From UHGV virus genome UHGV-0112485: DNA of 33,005 nt; one strand, given 5' to 3'. Positions 8,107 through 27,000 of this stretch are shown in pieces; positions within the stretch are counted from its first letter, which is position 1; each line of letters begins with the position of its first letter. The stretch is from a virus. Made by a program: the position numbers and the translations under genes. The notes under the pieces are model-generated. The model was not told the origin of the DNA. It saw only the letters and a list, made by a program, of their open reading frames with translations, and searched no databases.

Positions 8107-8188
8107 CGCGCGCTAGCTGGTTTGATAGCGAAACGCTGTTTGGTTGTTCTAATTGTCGAGGGTTATGTCACGTTGTACAGAAGGGGTT

Positions 8189-8216
8189 TTGACTTGGTGA
8201 ACAGTTGCAGTATCAT
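8189..8216 (+). promoter_or_regulatory. Sigma70 promoter for the cargo operon
   Basis: -35 TTGACT (8189-8194), a 16-nt spacer and -10 TATCAT (8211-8216). RBS AAGGAT lies before ATG 8240. Confidence 0.45.
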
Positions 8217-8239
8217 AAAAAGAAAAAAGGATATTTCCT

Positions 8240-8971
8240 ATGTACAAACTATGGGTTTTGTGGGGTTGTGTTTTTGTTCTTCTCCTAATCGTTATGGGAT
8301 GCGTTCCGTTTTCACCATTTGAAAAATGGTGGTTTACGGTAAACTTTATGTCAAATGTTAATATTATTCGTGCTTTTTTATCAGTTTTGATATTGTTTTT
8401 AATAGCTTATATTTTATTAATTGGTGCTTTTCATCAAAGATACTCGTTGAGGTTGGAACAGTTAAGTTTTGGCGGTATTAATATACTGCTTAATAAATCA
8501 GATCTTCTTTTTAAAAAAAGCGTAAAAAATTATTTGGATACTAAACGCTCATTGTTTAAGTTCGACCCAAATTATGATTCAATTGAAGAGGTGTTGAACT
8601 CATACTATGAATGCTATAAATTCATTAAAGATGAAATGAAGTTATTGGATATTACTAAAAGGCGCGATAAAAAATTGTATTCGCTAGCCAATGAAATGTT
8701 GAAAACATTAAATCGTTTTTTGACGAAACATCAAAATAACTATAGAAGATGGCATAAATTTATTTCAGATAATGATAAGGTGATTACAAAGGACAAGAAT
8801 TATAATGGAGAATTTGTAACATTGTCCTATCATTTGACGCCTATTAGTACTATCCAATCACATTATTATCATTTCAATGAAATATTGGAAGGCTTTAAAG
8901 AGGTTAATGATTTTTTCACTGATAAGGTTGTTAATGAGTTTAATATAAATGTTGATAAGTGGGGTATATGA
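8240..8971 (+). CDS. Cargo protein A: two N-terminal transmembrane helices plus a ~175-aa Lys-rich helical soluble domain, unknown function. Candidate defence effector.
   Basis: 243 aa. Hydrophobic segments LWVLWGCVFVLLLIVMGCV and IRAFLSVLILFLIAYILLIGAF. About 30% GC. Own promoter. Its stop overlaps the next gene's start (ATGATG/TGA). Confidence 0.7.
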   Translation: MYKLWVLWGCVFVLLLIVMGCVPFSPFEKWWFTVNFMSNVNIIRAFLSVLILFLIAYILLIGAFHQRYSLRLEQLSFGGINILLNKSDLLFKKSVKNYLDTKRSLFKFDPNYDSIEEVLNSYYECYKFIKDEMKLLDITKRRDKKLYSLANEMLKTLNRFLTKHQNNYRRWHKFISDNDKVITKDKNYNGEFVTLSYHLTPISTIQSHYYHFNEILEGFKEVNDFFTDKVVNEFNINVDKWGI

Positions 8972-9588
8972 TGCATAAGACGTTTCTGAGTTATCATCAT
9001 GCAAATGAGCAAGATCTCAAAGATGAGATAATTAAATTGTTTGGTGGTGATTCATTTATTGATAAGTCAGTAAGCGATGGTGATATAAGCACCACTAATT
9101 CTGATGAAACAATAATGAGAACTATCCGTGAGGATTTCTTAGAAGACTCGACGGTTACTGTCGTTCTTATCGGAACCGAGACAAAACAACGCCCATTTGT
9201 AAACTCTGAGATTCAAGCGTCACTCTGGGGAAGTGGTTATAATGGGTTAGTTGGTGTTATCAGGGACGAAATCTACGATAATGTGTTTACTCCAGCGGTA
9301 TGTGCAGATCCGTCATGTGGATGTTCTATCACCCTAAGAACTCCTGGTTTTGGATATGATTTTTATTTACCTTATTTGGTTAGGGAAAATCACGTTTATA
9401 AAAAAACAGTCCCACATTATAATGATACAGATGTGTACTGTGCATTGGTGAAATACTCTCTGTTTATTAAAAAACCTGAATATTACATCGACCAAGCATT
9501 TAATAAGCGCAAGACGATGGTACCTGCTGCGAAAAAAAACTCATCGGACGTTCCTGCGATTCGCAGTTCATCAATTTTTAATTGGTAG
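8968..9588 (+). CDS. Cargo protein B: TIR-like (DUF1863/ThsB-like) N-terminal domain plus a Cys-containing C-terminal domain. Candidate defence sensor/NADase.
   Basis: 206 aa from MMHKTFLSYHHANEQDLKDEI, which resembles the TIR-like 'vFiSYsh.D' box. VTVVLIGTETKQRPFVNSEIQ resembles the conserved S..W...E strand/helix with the putative catalytic Glu. AT-rich and translationally coupled to protein A. Confidence 0.6.
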   Translation: MMHKTFLSYHHANEQDLKDEIIKLFGGDSFIDKSVSDGDISTTNSDETIMRTIREDFLEDSTVTVVLIGTETKQRPFVNSEIQASLWGSGYNGLVGVIRDEIYDNVFTPAVCADPSCGCSITLRTPGFGYDFYLPYLVRENHVYKKTVPHYNDTDVYCALVKYSLFIKKPEYYIDQAFNKRKTMVPAAKKNSSDVPAIRSSSIFNW

Positions 9589-9594
9589 TATAAA

Positions 9595-9615
9595 GGTGCA
9601 TAATTATTATGCACC
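9595..9615. terminator. Perfect 21-bp palindrome, a bidirectional terminator between convergent genes
   Basis: GGTGCATAAT-T-ATTATGCACC. It sits between the cargo operon (+) and portal Q (-), flanked by AT-rich sequence. Confidence 0.5.
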
Positions 9616-9631
9616 TATTCCTTGCGTTACT

Positions 9632-10654
9632 TTAGAATGAATATTCCGTAAAACGAATGATATCATCATCCAACCATTCGTTTAACTCCTGCAGACGCTT
9701 CTGCAAAGGCATAATTTCATTGCGGACAAAGACGCGGCTAGCCTTTTCCACATCCCCAAAGCCGCCGGTATTATTTGGAATGATGCCCATCATCTGCGGC
9801 GGCACGCGGTGTGCTGCCATCATGTCATCGCGGCTCACGTTCTTGATGTTCAAAAATTCATCTTTCGCCGCGACCTCTGACAGCGGGATGATCTGGATGC
9901 CGTCCTTTTTACCGTTGGGCGAATACATAAACAGGTTGCGGAAGTTGCCCGGTCCCTTGGCGCTTTTCATGGCCTGGCGGATATTGTTCACGTCTTCCTG
10001 ATTCTGCGCTGCGTCGGTCATGTACATGATGAAACCGGCGTGACTGCCGTTGATGTAATACTTACGGCGAAACAGCGTAGCCGACTCGTTGAGCAGTGTT
10101 GAAGGGATCGCGGAGAGGTAGCCGGGAAGCCCGTAGATTTCCTGGTTAATGTCCGGCTCCATCAGGTGAAAGATGCTACCTTTGGTGAACTCATAAGGCT
10201 GGGTGGTCATGCCGTACTGCACGAACCAGTAAGTATCGAGGTCAATCCCGCGCCGGGTGTACTTCGCCAGTGATGGCTCCAGAGACAGGACGCCGCCCAG
10301 CCTGTTCGTCCGTTTTTCCAGATAGGCGTTACCGAACACAAGGTAGTCCTGGACGAAACGTGCAAAAGCCTGCTGGCTGAGCAGGCGGTGGGGGATGTAG
10401 GTGCTGCTGAGAATGTCACGCTTAACGGCAATCGGTGAGCTGTGATGTACAGCGGCGCGATAGGTCCGCGCCAGCCCGTCAAAACTCACCGGCGGCTCAT
10501 ACCAGCGGTCCATTTGCACACATTCTACGTAGTCCAGAAGTTCGCGGCGGTCCAGTACCGGAATGGGATCGCCAAAGCTGAACGCCTGGGTAGTTGCTGC
10601 ATCATTGGGTTGTACGTCGGGTGGCATCACATCCTGTGCGGTATTCTCAGTCAT
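9632..10654 (-). CDS. Q: Portal protein (P2 gpQ family)
   Basis: 340 aa (P2 Q is 344). In the conserved position, transcribed leftward together with P. Confidence 0.9.
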   Translation of the reverse strand: MTENTAQDVMPPDVQPNDAATTQAFSFGDPIPVLDRRELLDYVECVQMDRWYEPPVSFDGLARTYRAAVHHSSPIAVKRDILSSTYIPHRLLSQQAFARFVQDYLVFGNAYLEKRTNRLGGVLSLEPSLAKYTRRGIDLDTYWFVQYGMTTQPYEFTKGSIFHLMEPDINQEIYGLPGYLSAIPSTLLNESATLFRRKYYINGSHAGFIMYMTDAAQNQEDVNNIRQAMKSAKGPGNFRNLFMYSPNGKKDGIQIIPLSEVAAKDEFLNIKNVSRDDMMAAHRVPPQMMGIIPNNTGGFGDVEKASRVFVRNEIMPLQKRLQELNEWLDDDIIRFTEYSF

Positions 10655-12417
10655 TAAAAAATCTCCACAATGTTGCTGGTATTGGCGGCTTCGCCCTGCA
10701 GCGGTTCGTTAAACAGTGCGTGCATCGTTGCCCAGGCCAAATCGGCGTGGCTGGCTTCTTCGCTGCGGCTGGCTTCGTAGGTAGGGCGGTTGCCGCTGGC
10801 GGTGGTGGCGCGGCGGATAGCCATAAATGACTGCGCAATGTCGGTATGCCCGGCGTCAAACTCCAGACGGCGGTGGCTGATAATGTCGTATGCCTTGAGC
10901 ACCAGGGCGTTTTTGACGTTGGGGTTATAGACAAACTCCCGCACGGCAGGGAAAAAGCCTTTTACGTTTTCATAAACACCGTGACCGACGCCGGTGGAGT
11001 CAATGCCGATGTAGGTCACGTTATACTGCTGAGTCAGTTTGCGGATGGCCTCTGCCTGGGCGCGGAAGTCCATTCCGCGCCACTGGTGACGCTCAAGGAT
11101 GCGGAACTTACCGCCGGGCACCGTCGGCGGGGCAATGACTACGCAGCCAGCGCTGTCACCGTTCTGGGTACCTTTCGCCGGGTCATAGCCGATCCAGACT
11201 TCGCGCCAGCCGAACGGACGCAGGGCCAGCGCCTGAAAGTCTTCCCAGACTTCCCAGCTGTCCACCATGCAGGCCTGCAGGTCAGCCAGTGGGAAAACGG
11301 AGGCGAGATCGTCGATGAACTCACACATCAGCAGGTTCTGGTACTCGTCGGGGCTGTACTCCAGGCGCAGCTGGTCGAGGTCGAACAGGTTGCAGCCACC
11401 GCGCACGGCGTCCTCCACCGTCACGATCTGTCTGAACTGACCGTCAGCGCAAAGCAGACCGGCAGCAAGGGCTGAGTGGGTCAGGTCGATATCAACGCGA
11501 TCAGCTTTTGCCCGCCCGCGATTGAACAGGGCGCCGGACCAGAACGGGTAAGCGCTGTGCGTCAGGCTGGAAGGCGTAGAGAAATAGGTCTGGCGCCATT
11601 TCTTGTGCAGCGCCATGCCGGAGGCGACTTTACGTAGCTCCTGAAATTTCGGGATCCAGAAATACTCATCAAGATACAGGTTGCCGTGGTAACTCTGTGC
11701 GGTGCGGGCGTTGGTCCCGAGAAAATACAGCGTGGCGCCGTTTGGCAGCACCATGGGGTCGCCTTTTAATTCCACGTCGACTTCTTTGGCAAACTCGATG
11801 ATGTACTGCTTAAAAACATGCGCCTGGGCTTTACTGGCTGACAGGAAAATCTGGTTTCGCCCTGTCATCAGGGCGTCCATCAGCGCTTCACGCGCGAAAT
11901 AATACGTAGCGCCGATCTGGCGCGATTTAAGCACGTTGCGGATGCGGTGTTTAATTCCTGCTTCCCACCAGTGGCGCTGATATTCAAACATTCCGTTGCG
12001 GAAAATTTCTTCCAGCTTTTCGATCTGTTCGTCAGTAAACAGGTTCTTTTCTGGTGTCTTGCGGGGGCCGCGGTTGCGGTTTTGCACGTTGGGGTTAAGG
12101 TCCGCCTCATTACCGCCGTTGTTAAATTTACCGATGCGGGCGTGGCGCTCGGACTGGCGCGCCAGCAGGTCTATTTCTTTAAAGTCTTTCCCTTCCTTGT
12201 GCTCCTTCATGATGAGCTGGCAATAGCGGGCGGCAGTGGTGAGCTGCATCTGATCGAGTGGGCCATATTCGCCCCACTTGTCGCGCTTTTTCCAGCTGTG
12301 AACGGTTGCAACTTTTTCGCCCAGCATTTCAGCAATGCGGGCTACGCGGTATCCCTGAAAATACAGCAGTAATGCCTGCCTGCGGGGATCGAGGTCTGCG
12401 GGGGTCATCGTTTCCAT
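10654..12417 (-). CDS. P: Terminase large (ATPase) subunit (P2 gpP family)
   Basis: 587 aa (P2 P is 590). Walker A-like KSRQIGAT. Its stop overlaps the Q start. Confidence 0.9.
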   Translation of the reverse strand: METMTPADLDPRRQALLLYFQGYRVARIAEMLGEKVATVHSWKKRDKWGEYGPLDQMQLTTAARYCQLIMKEHKEGKDFKEIDLLARQSERHARIGKFNNGGNEADLNPNVQNRNRGPRKTPEKNLFTDEQIEKLEEIFRNGMFEYQRHWWEAGIKHRIRNVLKSRQIGATYYFAREALMDALMTGRNQIFLSASKAQAHVFKQYIIEFAKEVDVELKGDPMVLPNGATLYFLGTNARTAQSYHGNLYLDEYFWIPKFQELRKVASGMALHKKWRQTYFSTPSSLTHSAYPFWSGALFNRGRAKADRVDIDLTHSALAAGLLCADGQFRQIVTVEDAVRGGCNLFDLDQLRLEYSPDEYQNLLMCEFIDDLASVFPLADLQACMVDSWEVWEDFQALALRPFGWREVWIGYDPAKGTQNGDSAGCVVIAPPTVPGGKFRILERHQWRGMDFRAQAEAIRKLTQQYNVTYIGIDSTGVGHGVYENVKGFFPAVREFVYNPNVKNALVLKAYDIISHRRLEFDAGHTDIAQSFMAIRRATTASGNRPTYEASRSEEASHADLAWATMHALFNEPLQGEAANTSNIVEIF

Positions 12418-18450: not shown

Positions 18451-19023
18451 ATGAATACGCAATTAACCGAAATCATGCGCCTTATCACCAATCTGATCCG
18501 CACCGGCATTGTGACCGAAGTGGACCGGGACGGCTGGCTGTGCCGGGTGAAAACGGGCGACCTCGAAACCAACTGGATTAACTGGCTGACCTACCGTGCA
18601 GGTAAATCCCGCACCTGGTGGTGCCCGTCTCCAGGGGAGCAGGTGGTGCTGTTCAGCCTGGGCGGCAATCTGGAAACAGCCTTTGCGCTTCCGGCCATCT
18701 ACTCCAACGCCTGCCCGCCGCCGTCAGACTCTGAAAGTGCGGACGTGACCGCATACGAGGATGGCGGCTGGTTCGAATACGACCCCGCCACCGGGCGCTG
18801 GATTATTCGCGGCGTGAAAAGCGTGCTGATTGAGTCTTCGCAGGTTGTCTCCTGCAAAACCGGTGAGTTTGTGATCGAGGCTGACACCACCCTAATTAAC
18901 AGCAACGTGATCCTGAACGGCGATGTGACCCACGGCGGCGGCGCGATGACGTCAAACGGCGTCGTTGCTGATAAGCATAAACACCCTGGCGACAGTGGCG
19001 GAACGACGGGAGATCCATTTTGA
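18451..19023 (+). CDS. V: Baseplate central spike (gpV)
   Basis: 190 aa (P2 V is 211). N-terminal OB-fold-like region. Confidence 0.85.
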   Translation: MNTQLTEIMRLITNLIRTGIVTEVDRDGWLCRVKTGDLETNWINWLTYRAGKSRTWWCPSPGEQVVLFSLGGNLETAFALPAIYSNACPPPSDSESADVTAYEDGGWFEYDPATGRWIIRGVKSVLIESSQVVSCKTGEFVIEADTTLINSNVILNGDVTHGGGAMTSNGVVADKHKHPGDSGGTTGDPF

Positions 19024-19382
19024 CGCTCTATATCGGGATGAGCCGCGATACCGGCAGAGCCATAACGGAAACTGACCACCTGCGCCAGTCGGTGCGTGAC
19101 ATTTTGCTGACCCCGCAAGGGAGCCGGCTTGCGCGCCGGGAGTATGGTTCCCTGCTTTCAGCGCTCATTGACCAGCCGCAAAACCCGGCGCTGCGCCTGC
19201 AGATCATGGCTGCGGTGTATGTGGCGTTGCGGCGCTGGGAGCCGCGGCTGCAGCTGGACACTATCACGGTTAACAGCAGCAGCATGGATGGCGCAATGGT
19301 TATTGAGCTGGCAGGCCAGCGTAATGACGGCGTGCCCGTGTCCCTTTCCGTATCGACAGGAGCAGACAATGGCCGTTATTGA
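19020..19382 (+). CDS. W: Baseplate wedge protein gpW (gp25-like)
   Basis: 120 aa (P2 W is 115). Confidence 0.8.
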   Translation: MTLYIGMSRDTGRAITETDHLRQSVRDILLTPQGSRLARREYGSLLSALIDQPQNPALRLQIMAAVYVALRRWEPRLQLDTITVNSSSMDGAMVIELAGQRNDGVPVSLSVSTGADNGRY

Positions 19383-20277
19383 CCTTTCCCAGCTGCCGCC
19401 GCCGCAAATTGTGGATGTGCCGGATTTTGAAACCCTGCTGTCTGAGCGCAAGGCTGAATTTGTCGCGTTATTTCCGGCAGAAGAACAGGAGGCCGTGGCC
19501 CGCACCTTAGCGCTTGAGTCTGAGCCGGTGGTGAAAATGCTGCAGGAAAATGTGTACCGGGAGCTGCTGCTGCGCCAGCGGATTAACGAGGCGGCGAAAG
19601 CCGTGATGGTGGCCTATTCCGGCGGGGATGACCTGGACAATTTAGGCGCGAATAACAACGTACAGCGCCGGGTGATTACGGCTGCGGACGACACCACAAC
19701 GCCGCCAACGGAGGCGGTAATGGAATCTGACGCGGATTATCGCCAGCGCATCCCGGCGGCCTTTGAGGGGATGAGCGTTGCCGGGCCAGTCGGAGCCTAT
19801 GAATATCACGCGCTTAGCTCGGATGGTCGGGTGGCGGACGCGTCGGCGTTCAGCCCGTCACCGGCGGAAGTCGTGGTGACTATTCTGGCCCGCGACGGCG
19901 ATGGTACTGCGCCGGAAGATTTACTGCAGGTCGTCGGTGAGGCCCTGAATGATGAGGCTGTACGGCCGGTGGCGGATCGGGTGAGTGTCCGATCTGCTGA
20001 GATTGTCCCCTATGAAATTGATGCGGTTCTTTATGTCTATCCCGGCCCGGCAAAGGAACCCATCCTGGCGGCCGCGAAAGCGCAGGGTACGGCATATATC
20101 AACGAGCAGCGTCGCCTGGGGCGTGACGTGCGGCTGTCTGCTATCTATGCCGCTCTGCATGTTCAGGGCGTCCAGCGCGTTGAGCTGATGAAGCCCCTGG
20201 CGGACATGGTGTTAGATAAAACGCAGGCGTCATATTGCACCGATTTTAAAGCAGAAATTGGTGGTTCTGATGACTAG
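19369..20277 (+). CDS. J: Baseplate protein gpJ
   Basis: 302 aa from MAVIDLSQLPPPQIVDVPDFETLLSERKAEF, which matches the P2 J N-terminus (302 aa). The ORF track's 19129 start is a spurious upstream extension through W. Confidence 0.85.
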   Translation: MAVIDLSQLPPPQIVDVPDFETLLSERKAEFVALFPAEEQEAVARTLALESEPVVKMLQENVYRELLLRQRINEAAKAVMVAYSGGDDLDNLGANNNVQRRVITAADDTTTPPTEAVMESDADYRQRIPAAFEGMSVAGPVGAYEYHALSSDGRVADASAFSPSPAEVVVTILARDGDGTAPEDLLQVVGEALNDEAVRPVADRVSVRSAEIVPYEIDAVLYVYPGPAKEPILAAAKAQGTAYINEQRRLGRDVRLSAIYAALHVQGVQRVELMKPLADMVLDKTQASYCTDFKAEIGGSDD

Positions 20278-20872
20278 CAGTCTGTTACCGCCGGGGTCGT
20301 CTGCGCTGGAGCGCAGGCTGGCGCAAGCCTGTTCAGGTATCAGTGATTTAAACGTACCACTGCGTGACCTGTGGAACCCGTGGAAATGCCCGGCAAAGTT
20401 TCTGCCGTATCTGGCCTGGGCTTTCTCCGTTGACCGATGGGAGGAAACCTGGACAGAAACCGCTAAGCGGCAGGCGGTCAGCGATGCTTTCTGGATCCAT
20501 CAGCGCAAAGGTACGGTGGCGGCAGTTAAGCGGGTGATCGAGGGGCTGGGTTACTCAATGACCCTTGAGGAATGGTGGGAGGTGGCCGACCCCGCCGGGA
20601 CGTTTCGTCTTGAGATCGATCTGAATGAAATCGGCATCACGGAGCCGATGATTTACGAGCTTGAGCGGATTATTGGCGATGCGAAGCCAGTCAGTCGCCA
20701 TATATCGCAGTTGACGTTATCGGCATCAACTTCTGGCCCGGCAAATATTGGTGCCGCCGTGTTTGATGGTGATGTGATTACCGTTTATCCGCCGGGATAT
20801 AAGCCGGATGACAGTATTTATTACGATGCCACTGCGCATTACGACGAAAATTATCAATATTCCGGGGACTGA
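20270..20872 (+). CDS. I: Baseplate protein gpI
   Basis: 200 aa from MTSSLLPPGSSALE (P2 I begins MSDSRLLPTGSSPLE). Overlaps the J stop. Confidence 0.8.
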   Translation: MTSSLLPPGSSALERRLAQACSGISDLNVPLRDLWNPWKCPAKFLPYLAWAFSVDRWEETWTETAKRQAVSDAFWIHQRKGTVAAVKRVIEGLGYSMTLEEWWEVADPAGTFRLEIDLNEIGITEPMIYELERIIGDAKPVSRHISQLTLSASTSGPANIGAAVFDGDVITVYPPGYKPDDSIYYDATAHYDENYQYSGD

Positions 20873-20873
20873 T

Positions 20874-23759
20874 ATGTCTTTAATCAGCGAAACAGCACAG
20901 TGGGAAAGCGACATTCCGTTAATTAAGCGCGGCGACAAAGTGGCCGGGGGAAATGATGGTCTGGTGAACGTTCAGACCAGTATTCTCGCCGACCGCACAG
21001 CCTACCTGAGAGATCAGCTTAATGCCTACAATGGCCTGTTAAAATCGGGCGAATTACCATTTACCAGTGCGGCGGCAGCGCAGGCCGCAATTGCTGCCGG
21101 GAAAATACCGGAAGGAGGCGTATTCTCCATCCGGTCAACCAACCCTGCGCATTGGGTGGAAGAGGCGAAGAATACAAACGGGGCGGTGACGCTGACCGGG
21201 AAAGCTATTCTGTCAGATTTAATGCAGATGGTCACGGTCAGAGCGTCCGGTAACGACCCCGACGGAACGGCGGCGGGTTTATCCTCGACAACGGCAGAAC
21301 AGCATTTTCTGGTGATTAATCCAGAAGATAAAACATCACCGTTCACGGTGTATAAAAATAATAACGGTGTGGCGGAAAGGGTATCCGATATTATTGGATA
21401 TTCCACAATACAGGGGTTTATTGATGCCGGGTTTATTCCTGAATATCTTGACCCAGCGAGCGGTTATGTCGCTACTTTCCGCGACCCGGTCACGCGTCGC
21501 GCTGCTATTTCCATTACGGTAAAAGGGGAGGTTATCGCCCCGCTCCTGAAGATTGAAGATGGAGTTATTTCACATGAAAACCTTGCGCTTGATTTAAAAG
21601 CGCTGGTACCGACCACGCTCGACCCGGCAACCGGTTATGTTATGGCCTGGATGGACCCGAAATCCCGCCGCTGTGCCCTGCGTGTGAGCGTGTCCGGTGA
21701 AGTCGAAATTCCTCTGATTAAGCTGGGTAACGGCACGATCTCGCTGGAGAAACTGACGCCAGAGGTGCAGGGGTTAATGCCGGTGACACTCGACCCGGCA
21801 AGCGGTTTTGTCCTCGCCTGGGTTGACCCGAAAACCAAACGCTGCGCACTGCGGGTGAAACAGAATGGCGTGGTTGAAATCCCGCTGCTGTCCATTGGTA
21901 AAAACGTGATTACCCTGGACAACCTGACCGAGGAACTGAAAAGCGCCGTTCTGCCGTTTGCACAGGACGTGGTTGATGTTCCACCTGATGCTGTACGCGC
22001 GGTGCTGGCTGATGTTACCGCACGGACGAATGATGCGGATGGTTCTGGCTGGGCGGCGCTGTCACCGCGAGCCTGTCGCGCGCTGTACGGGGTAAACCAT
22101 ACCGGTACAGAGGTTGAATATCGTCGCGCGTTTGGCCTGAAAATCGCCGGGAAAGCACAGGGTACCCCATTTAACCCCGGCTCTCTGGCTTCCCTGCGTC
22201 GTCGCGGGCGGCTGACCAGTACGACCATTGTCACGCCGTCCGGCCAGTTTGTGGCGGGCGATTACTACAGCTATGAGGCGTACAACACCAATTCCAGCGT
22301 GTCAGAGAAAACGCCAGGCATCTGGAACGGAATGCAGGTCTATCTCGGTGATCTGCTTGTATACGATGGCACCGGGTGGAATATCCAGCGCTCCCCAGGC
22401 TCCGGCGCGCCGCGTAAAAACGATACCTGGTATGAAGTCACCGCGCCGGGCGTGTTTGCGGGTATGACACTGGCCGCCGGGGATAAACTCCTTTTTCTCA
22501 CTCTCCAGACGGCAGGGGGCGGTTTTTTGCAGCCGCAGTTTGCTGCCGTTAGTGCCGGGGCTGACCTGCTTTTTTACGCCGGTGAATTTAATCCGTCGGA
22601 GGGGATGCCGTCTCGTCCTCTGCAAAATGTCATCTGGCAGGCGTCCGCAGGGGGCGTGGCTGGTACAGAGAATTTTCGCGCCGGTGACTATGCCCTGTTT
22701 GACGGTAATGCATGGGTGATGATTGCCAATGAAGCCCCTGAGCAGGTTCCAGACGGGAAAAGCATCAGCCTGCGGTGTACCGCCAGTGCTGACGAATGGG
22801 AGTTTCGGCGCGTGGATAAGTCAGCCGCTGCCGTCGGTATTCGCCTGACGTCGCAGGTGGCCTCTGCGATGAAAACCGGGCTGGGTAAAAAGCTGTTGCT
22901 CATCGGTGACTCGATGTTCGGCAGCGGAACATCGGGCAGCACCATTATCGCCGCCACTAACCGCACCGGGGAGGTGCGCTCTTACGGTGGCTCCACTTCT
23001 GATCAGGTGCTGGGCATGTTTAAGCAGGAGGTACTCTCCTGGGGAGACCGCTGGGCGGGCCAGGTGATTGCGGTCTGGCACGGTCAGAATAACCAGCCGA
23101 AAACCGATGTTAACGCCTCGCAAATCCGTGAAGCGTCTTTGCAGATTGCGGCACTGGCCGGTGCGCGTGATATCCGCTGTTTGTTCCTGACCATCATGGG
23201 ACAACGTGAGGCCAGCTGGAACGGCGAGCGACTGGTGTTTCCCCAGCATGAAAACCAGTTTGCGGAAACAGGATACCTGTATGAGCTGACTGAGTGGTAC
23301 CGGCGCATTCTGCCGGGCCGTCATGCTGTGGTGTACGAAATTATGCTATCGGCTGCGACGGATGCCATCGACCCGACGCATCCGGGCATGACTGAAAAGC
23401 AGGTGGCGGCACGATACGGTGTGTTGCCCTGGTCATTCTTCAATAACGCGGTGCTGCCTGGGGCGATGACAACATCCGACATTCACTATGTGGGTACATG
23501 GAGCGCGTCCGGCCTGCCGTCCGGCGGCAATCACGCCGATTATTATCTGCGGATTGCAGGCGGCACCGTGGGAAATGTTCTGGTGAATAACGGCGGTACA
23601 TGGTCAGAGGTGGCGATTGATATCACCCACATGAGCCAGGCAGGAGGGCGGGCGCTGGCTTATGGCGGGCCGGGTTTCAGCCTGGGTGACGGGTACAAAT
23701 CCATTCCGGCACGTGACGGTATCGCCGGAATTCTGATGAACAATTATTTTTTTAAATGA
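20874..23759 (+). CDS. Large tail fibre/tailspike-like protein with 3x57-aa tandem repeats and an internal SGNH-hydrolase (esterase/deacetylase) domain
   Basis: 961 aa from the ATG 1 nt after the I stop. The N-terminus WESDIPLIKRGDKVAGG..NVQTSILADRTAYLRDQL is a prophage tail-fibre N-terminal-type motif. Three repeats of LDPA(S/T)G(Y/F)V..(F/W)(R/M/V)DP..(R/K)R.A(I/L).(I/V)... follow. SGNH blocks are present: LLLIGDSMFGSG (Ser), YGGSTSD (Gly), VWHGQNN (Asn) and DPTH (Asp/His). Confidence 0.8.
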   Translation: MSLISETAQWESDIPLIKRGDKVAGGNDGLVNVQTSILADRTAYLRDQLNAYNGLLKSGELPFTSAAAAQAAIAAGKIPEGGVFSIRSTNPAHWVEEAKNTNGAVTLTGKAILSDLMQMVTVRASGNDPDGTAAGLSSTTAEQHFLVINPEDKTSPFTVYKNNNGVAERVSDIIGYSTIQGFIDAGFIPEYLDPASGYVATFRDPVTRRAAISITVKGEVIAPLLKIEDGVISHENLALDLKALVPTTLDPATGYVMAWMDPKSRRCALRVSVSGEVEIPLIKLGNGTISLEKLTPEVQGLMPVTLDPASGFVLAWVDPKTKRCALRVKQNGVVEIPLLSIGKNVITLDNLTEELKSAVLPFAQDVVDVPPDAVRAVLADVTARTNDADGSGWAALSPRACRALYGVNHTGTEVEYRRAFGLKIAGKAQGTPFNPGSLASLRRRGRLTSTTIVTPSGQFVAGDYYSYEAYNTNSSVSEKTPGIWNGMQVYLGDLLVYDGTGWNIQRSPGSGAPRKNDTWYEVTAPGVFAGMTLAAGDKLLFLTLQTAGGGFLQPQFAAVSAGADLLFYAGEFNPSEGMPSRPLQNVIWQASAGGVAGTENFRAGDYALFDGNAWVMIANEAPEQVPDGKSISLRCTASADEWEFRRVDKSAAAVGIRLTSQVASAMKTGLGKKLLLIGDSMFGSGTSGSTIIAATNRTGEVRSYGGSTSDQVLGMFKQEVLSWGDRWAGQVIAVWHGQNNQPKTDVNASQIREASLQIAALAGARDIRCLFLTIMGQREASWNGERLVFPQHENQFAETGYLYELTEWYRRILPGRHAVVYEIMLSAATDAIDPTHPGMTEKQVAARYGVLPWSFFNNAVLPGAMTTSDIHYVGTWSASGLPSGGNHADYYLRIAGGTVGNVLVNNGGTWSEVAIDITHMSQAGGRALAYGGPGFSLGDGYKSIPARDGIAGILMNNYFFK
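21446..21960 (+). repeat. Three tandem ~171-bp (57-aa) coding repeats inside the large fibre gene
   Basis: Units start near 21446, 21618 and 21788 (CTCGACCCGGCAA(C/G)CGGTT(A/T)TGT...). The units have diverged, but the repeat is clear at both protein and DNA level. Confidence 0.6.
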
Positions 23760-23766
23760 GGTAACT

Positions 23767-24603
23767 ATGGGCCTGCTTAATGAACTCATTGGCGCAAATT
23801 TCACTGACCCGCGACTGCCGATTATTCCGGACTATCCTGGCCTGACGCTCGGATCGCTGGCATTAATGGATGTCTCAGAAATTCCGGCCGATTTTGATTT
23901 TTCGGGCTTTGGGAAAAATATCCCCCTGAATAATCTGGCAAGCAAAGAAGCTGCCACCCTGACAGGGAAAACAAAAGCGGAGCTGGAATTTAGCTGGAAT
24001 AACACGCTGATCACCACGGGTGCCACGCCGGAGGCGAAGTTTGAACGCACGCCGCGCGGCGGTGTTCACGGGATTGTATCGCTGGTTAACCAGACGCTGG
24101 GACACCGTGGCCGGTTTACCTGTCCGGGTATCATGCCGTACATCGCTGAGCACCAGAACGATCATAAATTTGCCGTGTTTGCGCACTATCAGGTCACGCG
24201 GGTGGGAAGTGGCACACCGGCAACCCATACCACGGAAATGCTGATTGCGACGCAGGTTTCCCCTTCATCGAACCGTTTGATTATGGGGCGTTTGCCTAAC
24301 GCGGTATCAGCTGGCCCGGCGCTGTTCAGTCTGCAATCGGACAAAAATGGCAATGATTTCACAGGCAGTATGTATTACCAGGATTTACCGGTATGGGGGG
24401 CGGCGTCGGGATTTAGTTCCCTGGTGAATAATGCCTGTAAGTCCTATGTGCTTTACCGCCTGCACCTTGTGGATATTGACGCATCAGGGATGTCATTTGC
24501 TGAAATCGCAGCAACCGAACAGCAGGTATTCAGCGCCAACTTTGGCGAAGGCGGCAAGTATGCCGGTGACAGTATTCCAACCTCGCCGGCAGCGCTGCCG
24601 TAA
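23767..24603 (+). CDS. Unknown 278-aa protein between the two fibre genes (possible adhesin tip or fibre accessory protein)
   Basis: Good RBS (GAGGTAACT-ATG). I recognise no motifs. It does not resemble the P2 gpG chaperone. Confidence 0.65.
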   Translation: MGLLNELIGANFTDPRLPIIPDYPGLTLGSLALMDVSEIPADFDFSGFGKNIPLNNLASKEAATLTGKTKAELEFSWNNTLITTGATPEAKFERTPRGGVHGIVSLVNQTLGHRGRFTCPGIMPYIAEHQNDHKFAVFAHYQVTRVGSGTPATHTTEMLIATQVSPSSNRLIMGRLPNAVSAGPALFSLQSDKNGNDFTGSMYYQDLPVWGAASGFSSLVNNACKSYVLYRLHLVDIDASGMSFAEIAATEQQVFSANFGEGGKYAGDSIPTSPAALP

Positions 24604-24612
24604 GGGGAGAGC

Positions 24613-25689
24613 GTGAGCATGAATTACTATGCCATTCTCACCGATTACGGGGAGGCGGCGTTTACTAAGGCGGTGGCAACCGGTGAGCCTGTGAATTTTG
24701 CAGAAATGGCGGTCGGTGATGGCGCGGGTATCATCCCGCAGCCGGACAGAACGCGCACAGGTCTGGTGAATGAAGTGTATCGCGGCCCGCTTAACCGTGT
24801 AGTCATTGCAGACCAGAGCGCGAGTGTTATCCGCACAGAAATGATAATCCTGCCGCAAACCGGTGGTTTCTGGCTGCGAGAGGCTGCGCTCTATGATGAT
24901 GCCGGGGAGTGCCTGGCGGTAGCCAGTCTCCCGCCAGTGTATAAGCCGCTTCTGGCAGAAGGGGCCGGGCGGTTGCAGGCCATCAATCTGTGGATAGCCG
25001 TCAGCAAAACAGCCGCGGTGGAGCTTAAAACCGATCCAACGGTCATTATTGCCTCGGTGGAGGAGGTTGATCGTGCGAAAAATGAGGCAAAGGATTATGC
25101 CGACAAGATTGCGGGCCAGCTGGATACGGATATACAGCAGGTGATTGCCGATGCGATAACGGCGGCAAAGCGAGATTTCTGGGAAGATGATAACCCGGTG
25201 GGAACCACCCGCTTTTTTAACCAGAACCTCAATCCCAATGAACGCTGGCCGTGGTCCCAATGGGTGTACACCGGCGAAAACAAAACGATCCGCGTCGGAA
25301 AGGCTGACGGTTCGAACGTCGGGCAGAGCGGCGGCAGCGATAACGTCACACTTCAGCAGGCCAACCTGCCCGCCGTTCAGATTGACGTGAGCGGAGAAAC
25401 CAGCGAACAGGGGCAGCAGGAGCTGACGACATCGGGCAACGGAAGGCACCGGCACAGGGCAGGTGACGGCGCGCCGGGGGATACCTGGCGGGACGCCACA
25501 CACGGAACGGATAACCAGAAATATACGGGGTGGAACTATACCGACTATGCAGAAGACCATCAGCATAGCGTCACGATCCCGCCGCACAAACACTCGACCA
25601 GCGGCAAAACAGCCAGCCTCGGCGAAGGTAAATCGTTCAGCGTGGTGGAATCTCACACGCTGCTGATGTGCTGGAGCCGCGTTGCCTGA
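24613..25689 (+). CDS. H: Short tail fibre with P2 gpH-like N-terminal baseplate-attachment domain and an HxH-motif C-terminal domain
   Basis: The N-terminal ~170 aa (MAVGDGAGIIPQPD..TGLVNEVYRG...GGFWLREAALYDDAGECLAVASLPPVYKPLLAEGAGR) aligns with the P2 gpH N-terminus. The C-terminus carries HRHRAGD...HQHSVTIPPHKHSTSG, HxH metal-binding motifs of the kind found in fibre tips. Confidence 0.8.
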   Translation: MSMNYYAILTDYGEAAFTKAVATGEPVNFAEMAVGDGAGIIPQPDRTRTGLVNEVYRGPLNRVVIADQSASVIRTEMIILPQTGGFWLREAALYDDAGECLAVASLPPVYKPLLAEGAGRLQAINLWIAVSKTAAVELKTDPTVIIASVEEVDRAKNEAKDYADKIAGQLDTDIQQVIADAITAAKRDFWEDDNPVGTTRFFNQNLNPNERWPWSQWVYTGENKTIRVGKADGSNVGQSGGSDNVTLQQANLPAVQIDVSGETSEQGQQELTTSGNGRHRHRAGDGAPGDTWRDATHGTDNQKYTGWNYTDYAEDHQHSVTIPPHKHSTSGKTASLGEGKSFSVVESHTLLMCWSRVA

Positions 25690-25827: not shown

Positions 25828-27000
25828 ATGGCGCAAGACTATCACCACGGCGTGCGTGTTGTTGAAGTTAACGAAGGCACCCGCTCTATCACGACGGTGA
25901 GCACGGCGATTGTGGGCATGGTATGCACCGGCGATGATGCCGATGCCTCTGTGTTCCCGCTCAATAAGCCGGTTCTGCTTACCGATGTACTGACCGCCAG
26001 CGGCAAAGCGGGCGAGTCCGGCACGCTGGCCCGCTCACTGGACGCCATCGCCGACCAGGCAAAACCCGTCACCGTTGTGGGGCGTGTTGCCCAGGGCGAA
26101 ACCGAAGCGGAAACCACCTCCAATATTATCGGCGGTGTAACCGCTGACGGTAAGAAAACGGGCATCAAAGCGCTGCTTTCGGCGCAGTCGCAGCTGGGCG
26201 TGAAGCCGCGCATTCTGGGCGTGCCGGGCCATGACACGCAGGCTGTTTCCACTGAGCTGTTAAGCGTGGCGCAGAGCCTGCGCGGCTTTGCGTATCTGTC
26301 TGCCTACGGTTGTAAAACTGTGGAAGAAGCGATTGCCTACCGCGAAAATTTCAGTCAGCGAGAAGGGATGTTGATCTGGCCTGATTTCATCAACTTTGAC
26401 ACGGTGCTGCAGGCGGATGCGACTGCTTACGCCACTGCCCGCGCGCTGGGTCTGCGTGCAAAAATCGACGAGCAGACCGGCTGGCACAAAACCCTTTCTA
26501 ACGTGGGCGTCAACGGCGTAACCGGCTTGTCTGCGGATGTGTTCTGGGATCTGCAGGACCCGGCAACCGATGCCGGACTGCTGAACCAGAACGACGTCAC
26601 CACCTTGATCCGCAAGGATGGTTTCCGCTTCTGGGGTTCCCGCTGCCTCAGCGATGACCCGTTATTCCAGTTTGAAAACTACACCCGTACCGCGCAGGTG
26701 CTGGCAGACACCATGGCGGAGGCGCATATGTGGGCGGTGGACATGCCGCTTAACCCTTCGCTGGCTCGCGACATTATCGAAGGTATCCGTGCCAAAATGC
26801 GCAGCCTGGTAAATCAGGGCTACCTCATCGGCGGTGACTGCTGGATTGATGACAGTGTGAATGACAAAGACACGCTGAAAGCCGGGAAACTCTGGATCGA
26901 CTACGACTATACGCCAGTGCCGCCACTGGAAAACCTGATGCTGCGCCAGCGCATCACTGACCGTTACCTGGTGGATTTCACCACCCGCGTAAGCGCATAA
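25828..27000 (+). CDS. FI: Tail sheath protein (gpFI)
   Basis: 390 aa (P2 FI is 396). The N-terminus [30 protein letters not shown] matches P2 FI. Confidence 0.9.

Follow-up and report, generated by a model that had tools for sequence, protein, structure and literature searches.

ORF961, a 961-amino acid (aa) open reading frame (ORF) in UHGV virus genome UHGV-0112485, probably encodes the variable, enzymatic receptor-binding protein (RBP) of a P2-like (Peduoviridae) Klebsiella prophage. The window, which is the whole stretch of 33,005 nucleotides (nt) that was analyzed, is a complete P2/186-type prophage; ORF961 lies at 20874..23759, and all genes from the baseplate gene I to the tail sheath gene are on its forward strand. 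The protein would consist of an N-terminal anchor, a shaft made up of repeats and a central region, and a divergent SGNH-fold esterase tip that removes O-acetyl groups. Its status as an RBP is supported by its place in the tail operon between gene I and a gpH-like gene, by an anchor that is common to related RBPs, and by 51% identity to a tail-module protein of Mydovirus. The earlier note on this DNA, which was made from the sequence alone, had suggested a second RBP, and both the operon position and the common anchor agree with it. Deacetylating fibers and dual RBPs are already established as a principle, and the family of ORF961 is a divergent one within a type of RBP that was known before (PMC13123978). 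New are a family that is invisible to domain databases, a block V that in the predicted fold is displaced behind an inserted subdomain, a strict association with a partner that is lectin-like in its model, and the transfer of the pair among four tail architectures.

ORF961 starts 1 nt past the stop codon of gene I and is preceded by a GGGGA ribosome-binding site. Its position in the tail block and a 95% identical homolog of equal length (P0001, 961 aa) confirm the position and length that had been claimed for it. The cluster nearest to ORF961 contains 871 member sequences, and its homologs carry “hypothetical” in the source names returned.

A Divergent SGNH-Fold Domain Is Predicted at the C-Terminus

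The C-terminal part of ORF961 (aa 640–961, 322 aa) was modeled with AlphaFold2 from a 19-sequence alignment (predicted local distance difference test, pLDDT, 72.5; predicted template modeling score, pTM, 0.74). The model displays a three-layer alpha/beta/alpha fold with a five-stranded parallel sheet whose strands alternate with helices. Foldseek returned 22 matches with E < 1e-3; apart from a single designed scaffold, whose chains also matched, all of them are GDSL/SGNH enzymes. When 1.84 billion representative proteins were searched with a profile, 103 family members were identified, nearly all of them 800–1150 aa long and with the domain at the C-terminus, and residue conservation was counted across family representatives that share <50% identity between clusters.

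Block I (G678-D679-S680, 22905..22913) directly follows strand beta-1 of the model (aa 673–678) and contains the predicted nucleophile Ser680, which is conserved in 91/91 representatives, next to Asp679 (89/91). The predicted oxyanion-hole residues are the glycines of block II (G705-G706, 22986..22991) after strand beta-2, conserved in 72/92 and 79/92 representatives, respectively, and Asn739 (94/95) of block III (G737-Q-N739-N740, 23082..23093) after strand beta-3, in which Gly737 is found in 91/95. The GDS, GG, and GQNN motifs are all invariant in close homologs. The earlier note had listed four SGNH blocks (GDSMF, a Gly block, GQNN, and DPTH), and these first three stand. The fourth, DPTH (aa 833–836, 23370..23381), was rejected as block V: among 95 family members, position 836 is His in 10, Phe in 62, and Tyr in 8, and most close homologs carry Phe. 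The conserved motif is D916-I-T-H919 (23619..23630), with Asp916 present in 87/93 and His919 in 91/91 representatives and with D916, T918, and H919 invariant in close homologs; in the model it is followed by a helix (aa 922–930, model residues 283–291). Because D916 and H919 are conserved and His836 is present in only 10 out of 95 members, block V with the predicted catalytic Asp/His pair was assigned to D916-x-x-H919. For the same reason the domain extends over approximately aa 670–930 (22881..23663) and not over aa 670–840 as first proposed.

Strand beta-5 and block V are separated by an insert of ∼90 aa (aa 826–915, 23349..23618) that consists of helices followed by a beta-meander (strands at aa 871–876, 889–893, 902–906, and 909–913 in the model; block pLDDT 84–94) and that might form a substrate-binding lid or subdomain. 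The domain is followed by a C-terminal tail (aa 931–961, 23664..23756) that ends in ILMNNYFFK. The tail is conserved in the homolog alignment and is unmatched in many distant family members, where matches end around profile position 290.

ORF961 scores below the threshold of the Pfam SGNH families Lipase_GDSL_2 (PF13472), Lipase_GDSL (PF00657), and SASA (PF03629) and is filed in none of them. Membership in the SGNH group is supported by the predicted fold, the Foldseek matches, and the conserved Ser/Gly/Asn/His set, not by sequence families, and to this extent the SGNH-fold domain suggested by the earlier note is upheld. No beta-helix is present in the modeled 322 aa, and the whole of ORF961 gives no Pfam match.

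Anchor, Repeats, and Central Region

The N-terminal anchor module (aa 1–170, 20874..21383) has its best-conserved core at aa 1–58 and is common to RBPs with quite different heads. Residues 1–57 match tail-fiber families of PHROG, and the first 50–170 residues are common to Klebsiella P2-like RBPs, in agreement with the tail-fiber-type N-terminus that had been noticed earlier. Identity to the anchors of related phages is 46% for the RBP of ST13-OXA48phi12.1 (aa 1–170), 43% for the RBP of ST147-VIM1phi7.1 (aa 1–112), and 38% for the tailspike of ST15-OXA48phi14.1 (aa 1–58). In five further proteins (P0019–P0023) an anchor of the ORF961 type is fused to SASA esterase heads. The module presumably serves as the baseplate- or fiber-docking part of the protein.

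The anchor is followed by three tandem repeats of 57 aa: repeat 1 (aa 192–248, 21447..21617), repeat 2 (aa 249–305, 21618..21788), and repeat 3 (aa 306–362, 21789..21959). The units align in register with 44–51% aa identity and pairwise BLOSUM62 scores of 113–168, compared with 21 ± 4 (maximum 56) for shuffled sequences, so that the repeats described before are real. Repeat 1 is 44–47% identical to repeats 2 and 3 (scores 113–141), and repeats 2 and 3 are 51% identical in protein and 62% in DNA, with a longest exact run of 13 nt. Overall, DNA identity between the units is 51–62% with longest exact runs of 7–13 nt, and Tandem Repeats Finder detected no DNA tandem repeat in the gene (positions 20000–25000). 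The repeats thus appear to be old, diverged domain duplications. It had been suggested that tandem DNA repeats at 21446–21960 mediate length variation, but frequent repeat-driven variation is implausible at a nucleotide identity of only 51–62%; a switch that works by slippage or recombination of the repeats was rejected on the same identity and the short exact runs. Homologs carry two, three, or four copies, and the length of the shaft, for which the units presumably act as shaft or spacer, has therefore changed over evolutionary time.

The conserved central region (aa 366–660, 21969..22853) lies ahead of the esterase domain throughout the family. It contains at least three copies of a GD-x5-G-x2-W-type motif that are kept across the family, including the consensus of 59 distant members, and the homolog alignment displays dense invariant columns at aa 417–650. 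The region (aa 366–660) has no match in Pfam or the PDB; a weak match to Pfam DUF2793 was found in one distant family member.

ORF961 Occupies a Hypervariable Cassette

Within the window, an integrase, a CI-type repressor, a Dam methylase, and replication gene A are followed by the head and lysis genes and by a tail block that contains gene V (18451–19023), gene W (19020–19382), gene J between W and I, and the baseplate gene I (20258..20872, 204 aa; Pfam Tail_P2_I 1.1e-47), which forms the upstream border of the variable cassette. ORF961 is followed by its partner gene ORF278 (23767..24603, 278 aa), by a gpH-type short fiber gene (24613..25689, 358 aa; Pfam Phage_tail_fib 2.5e-43), and by the ORF of tail sheath gene FI (25828..27000), which is annotated as tail sheath in collinear relatives and represents the conserved downstream flank.

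Klebsiella phage ST15-OXA48phi14.1 (Gegavirus) is the closest relative: 73% of the stretch used as query (window 8100–33005) aligns with it at 96.5% identity. In this phage, gene I is followed by a 702-aa tailspike, a 72-aa ORF, a 387-aa collar fiber, and the sheath. The order I, RBP, small ORF, gpH-like fiber, sheath is also kept in ST13-OXA48phi12.1 (Dagavirus; RBP 806 aa, small ORF 245 aa) and in ST147-VIM1phi7.1 (Vimunumvirus; RBP 754 aa, small ORF 242 aa). The RBPs of the window and of these three relatives have their first 50–170 residues in common and diverge fully beyond that point. The loci thus resemble each other in gene order, in the RBP anchor, and in flanks with 88–96% nt identity, whereas the RBP heads of the relatives differ from that of ORF961 (a CBA120 TSP4-like tailspike, “endo-N-neuraminidase”-like or unknown heads) and their small ORFs are unrelated to ORF278. 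Nucleotide identity to ST15-OXA48phi14.1 ends at 20634, inside gene I, and restarts at 25189, inside the gpH-like gene; for ST13-OXA48phi12.1 the corresponding borders are 20907, where ORF961 has just begun, and 24786, near codon 58 of the gpH-like gene. Variation of the RBP may be accompanied by variation in the C-terminus of I and in the N-terminal half of the short fiber. From 20600 to 21600, a part of the window that takes in the last part of gene I and the anchor of ORF961, the GC content is 0.50–0.52; it is ∼0.53–0.54 in ORF278 and ∼0.58–0.61 in the flanks, a dip that would fit a mosaic origin of the cassette. In ST437-OXA245phi4.1, ST512-KPC3phi13.6, and ST258-KPC3phi16.1, the features listed for the collinear stretch include a gene with the annotation “CotH kinase family / spore coat protein”; such a head, if the gene does lie at the RBP position, would be unusual for a phage RBP.

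P2 and 186 carry a single fiber gene H that is followed by the chaperone gene G, and E. coli relatives are annotated with a tail fiber and a tail fiber assembly protein. The 358-aa ORF of the window retains the gpH N-terminal domain and the place before FI, but unlike in P2/186 there are an additional RBP and its partner, a shorter H with a Felixounavirus-like tip, and no G: no gpG/Tfa-type chaperone gene was found between the gpH-type fiber and the sheath gene. The additional RBP is unusual relative to P2/186 and ordinary among the nearer Klebsiella relatives. The “unusual dual-fiber architecture” put forward by the earlier note is thus not supported, since the same gene order is common to Gegavirus, Dagavirus, and Vimunumvirus, and a recent insertion specific to this phage was rejected because several genera have an equal layout. 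The locus is a standard hypervariable RBP cassette ahead of a conserved short fiber.

The short fiber combines the N-terminal domain of P2 gpH with a His-rich C-terminal half (HRHR, HQHS, and HKHS motifs). It is 72% and 54% identical to its equivalents in ST13-OXA48phi12.1 and ST15-OXA48phi14.1, respectively, and 54–78% identical across related phages; its residues 165–358 display 30–37% identity to Felixounavirus tail fibers. Judged by these similarities, it is a chimera of a P2 gpH N-terminus and a Felixounavirus-like C-terminal half.

The Partner Gene ORF278

ORF278, a gene that the earlier note had overlooked as a partner, is preceded by a GAGG ribosome-binding site 7 nt upstream of its start. 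It has no Pfam match, its PHROG match is a family of unknown function (18370), and it matches none of the tail-fiber assembly chaperone families (P2 gpG / lambda Tfa, Caudo_TAP) in Pfam or PHROG. An AlphaFold2 model (pLDDT 76.5, pTM 0.81) consists of a beta-sandwich and C-terminal helices, and a fold comparison pointed with modest scores to a jelly roll similar to lectins and carbohydrate-binding modules (CBMs), which suggests that ORF278 is a lectin-like accessory protein.

Homologs of ORF278 with 64–66% identity are located directly downstream of ORF961 homologs in three other settings: the lytic Mydovirus phages KpS8, Seu621, and KB57, a 59-kb PIN2-like siphovirus, and a lambdoid prophage with a GpJ-type central fiber. 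A sample of 37 IMG/VR loci that encode the esterase domain was examined for this linkage. Room for a downstream gene was present in 33 of them, and an ORF278-like gene immediately follows the esterase module in 32 of these 33 viral loci. The linkage holds even where the esterase domain is only 32–41% identical to that of ORF961. The esterase module and ORF278 travel as a cassette of two genes between tails of very different types, and ORF278 most likely acts together with the fiber, be it as an accessory subunit that binds glycans or as a factor in assembly. Distant actinophage relatives of ORF278 are annotated as minor tail proteins.

Comparison with Known Esterase Fibers

The SGNH domain is the most prevalent enzymatic RBP domain reported in Klebsiella prophages (Otwinowska et al., PLoS Biol 2026, PMC13123978). 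Two Klebsiella prophage SGNH fibers (164_08-KL2 and 174_38-KL55) hydrolyze p-nitrophenyl acetate (pNPA), with capsule deacetylation as the proposed activity, and gp63.1 of the E. coli phage G7C deacetylates O-antigen (PMC13123978). Like 164_08-KL2 and 174_38-KL55, ORF961 is a prophage-encoded Klebsiella RBP with a distal SGNH fold, here a predicted one, in place of a beta-helix depolymerase. The two fibers are recognized by HHpred/ECOD, whereas the ORF961 family lacks any Pfam match, and their esterase activity is known, whereas the ORF961 family is known here from sequence and predicted fold. Further differences from the fibers of that study are the displacement of block V by the ∼90-aa insert and the strict pairing with an ORF278-type gene, which is not described there; the motif strings of the ORF961 family were not found in its supplements (PMC13123978).

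Searches of the PDB detected no sequence similarity between ORF961 and G7C gp63.1 (PDB 4QNL). G7C is an N4-like podovirus with an attachment system different from that of the window prophage, and gp63.1 is not known to have an ORF278-type partner gene.

A true homolog is found in Mydovirus (Vequintavirinae), where the “tail spike protein” (Seu621 orf00050 / KpS8 orf051) is 51% identical to aa 160–961 of ORF961, an alignment that covers the repeats, the central region, and the esterase domain. The ORF278 homolog, a 275-aa hypothetical protein with 66% identity, lies directly downstream. The Mydovirus protein differs from ORF961 in that it has another N-terminal anchor, a total length of 1092 aa, and a place on an rV5-like lytic myovirus. 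It is listed as one of five tail-fiber ORFs (PMC8381472), and the K23 specificity is owed to a separate beta-helix depolymerase (PMC8381472; PMC12654880); neither of the two papers gives a function for the homolog (PMC12654880, PMC8381472). At Seu621 8155–12270 and at the equivalent positions, the esterase fiber and its ORF278-like neighbor match with equal score and extent in phages of K23, K54, and M-9 hosts, a hint that the K-type determinant of those phages lies outside the Mydovirus esterase module.

Proposed Function and Alternative Explanations

In the proposed mechanism, a fiber trimer would be held on the baseplate by its N-terminal anchor (∼aa 1–170), with the three 57-aa repeats and the conserved central region as a shaft. 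The distal SGNH domain, with Ser680 as nucleophile, Gly705/706 and Asn739 in the oxyanion hole, and Asp916/His919, would strip O-acetyl groups from capsule or O-antigen and leave the polysaccharide chain uncut, and this deacetylation would give the phage binding and passage. ORF278 might help in glycan binding or fiber folding, and the conserved gpH-type short fiber would then engage a second, conserved receptor. The deacetylation proposed here draws on an analogy with G7C gp63.1 and with the two Klebsiella prophage fibers that were assayed.

Several results weigh against an enzymatic RBP of this kind. Pfam is blank for the whole of ORF961 (E ≤ 1) and for four segments of it (E ≤ 10), none of the 59 distant family members matches any Pfam SGNH family (0/59, E ≤ 0.01), and sequence searches of the PDB, with the protein (phmmer) and with the family profile (hmmsearch), returned only noise. 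Alignment of the family profile with hhalign gave a probability <1% for the anchor-sharing SGNH RBPs QBA84993, P0019, and P0021; the probability was also <1% for E. coli TesA, where blocks I–III are nevertheless in register, a lead only. The confidence of the model is moderate (pLDDT 72.5 from 19 sequences, with three of the five models ≤54), and SGNH folds are also found in O-acetyltransferases, with OatA and PatB among the structural matches. Finally, the Mydovirus homolog appears unchanged (equal score and coordinates) whether its phages were isolated on K23, on K54, or on other hosts, which argues against a strict capsule-type specificity; the target of the esterase may thus not be K-type specific.

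The SGNH-like domain might be a catalytically dead binding domain or a structural one, in a fiber that recognizes its receptor without modifying it. No sequence profile recognizes the domain, Gly678 of block I is replaced by Ser in about half of the family, and the model is of moderate confidence, all of which would fit a domain without activity. However, Ser680, Asn739, and His919 hardly vary between clusters that are <50% identical, a strictness expected of catalysis and not of a scaffold, and related prophage fibers are active esterases (PMC13123978), which makes a dead domain improbable. Activity of another type, as an O-acetyltransferase or as another acyl-transfer or lipolytic enzyme similar to OatA/PatB or acyloxyacyl hydrolase (AOAH), is suggested by the presence of OatA, PatB, and AOAH among the structural matches. 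A virion protein outside the cell has no acetyl donor, though, and the best structural matches as well as the phage precedents are hydrolytic carbohydrate esterases, so that such an enzyme is quite improbable. Least credible is a true gpH orthology of ORF961 with the 358-aa ORF as a duplicated remnant, which can draw on the location of ORF961 directly after gene I, where P2 has H. The Phage_tail_fib domain (PF12571) is absent from ORF961 and was identified by Pfam in the downstream ORF, at 2.5e-43; that ORF is intact and 54–78% identical across several genera. Orthology to gpH was therefore rejected, and the earlier note's description of the downstream ORF as the gpH-like fiber is confirmed.

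ORF278 could be an assembly chaperone only, similar to P2 gpG or lambda Tfa, that stays outside the virion and has no role in receptor recognition. Its location directly downstream of the fiber gene is the classical chaperone position, it is strictly linked to the esterase module, and other alleles at the locus carry unrelated small ORFs of their own. The lack of similarity to known tail-fiber assembly families, the lectin/CBM-like jelly roll of the predicted fold, and the minor tail protein annotation of the actinophage relatives speak against a role restricted to assembly, which is a serious possibility but somewhat doubtful. A tentative scheme, rather doubtful as a whole, combines the fiber and ORF278 into a two-component device: a virion-borne, lectin-like ORF278 docked on the C-terminal tail of the fiber (for ORF961, aa 931–961, a speculative docking site) would bind the glycan, the SGNH domain would deacetylate it, and P2-like, rV5-like, PIN2-like, and lambdoid tails would exchange the two genes together. 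The target of the device may not be tied to the K-type, because the Mydovirus copy appears unchanged in K23 and K54 phages.

Should ORF961 be a deacetylating RBP, it would belong to the esterase-type RBPs, which in temperate Klebsiella phages increasingly stand out as the main alternative to capsule depolymerases and many of which are still missed by annotation pipelines. Recognition of this Pfam-invisible family would contribute to the prediction of host range and to counts of “RBP-less” prophages. The corrected catalytic residues for mutagenesis are Ser680, Asn739, Asp916, and His919, not His836. The strict pairing with a lectin-like partner suggests that recombinant work on the fiber may need co-expression of the partner, and such a need could be relevant to the many prophage RBPs for which expression was reported to fail (PMC13123978).

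Other Cargo Genes in the Window

A two-gene cargo is located on the forward strand at window positions 8240–9588, between replication gene A and the portal gene Q. The second gene (8959–9588, 209 aa) encodes a ThsB TIR-like domain (Pfam 4e-14, PADLOC ThsB 1.5e-13), and the overlapping upstream gene (8240–8971, 243 aa) has no match in Pfam or PADLOC. The two genes may represent a Thoeris-like defense pair with an unrecognized partner in the usual P2 defense hotspot.

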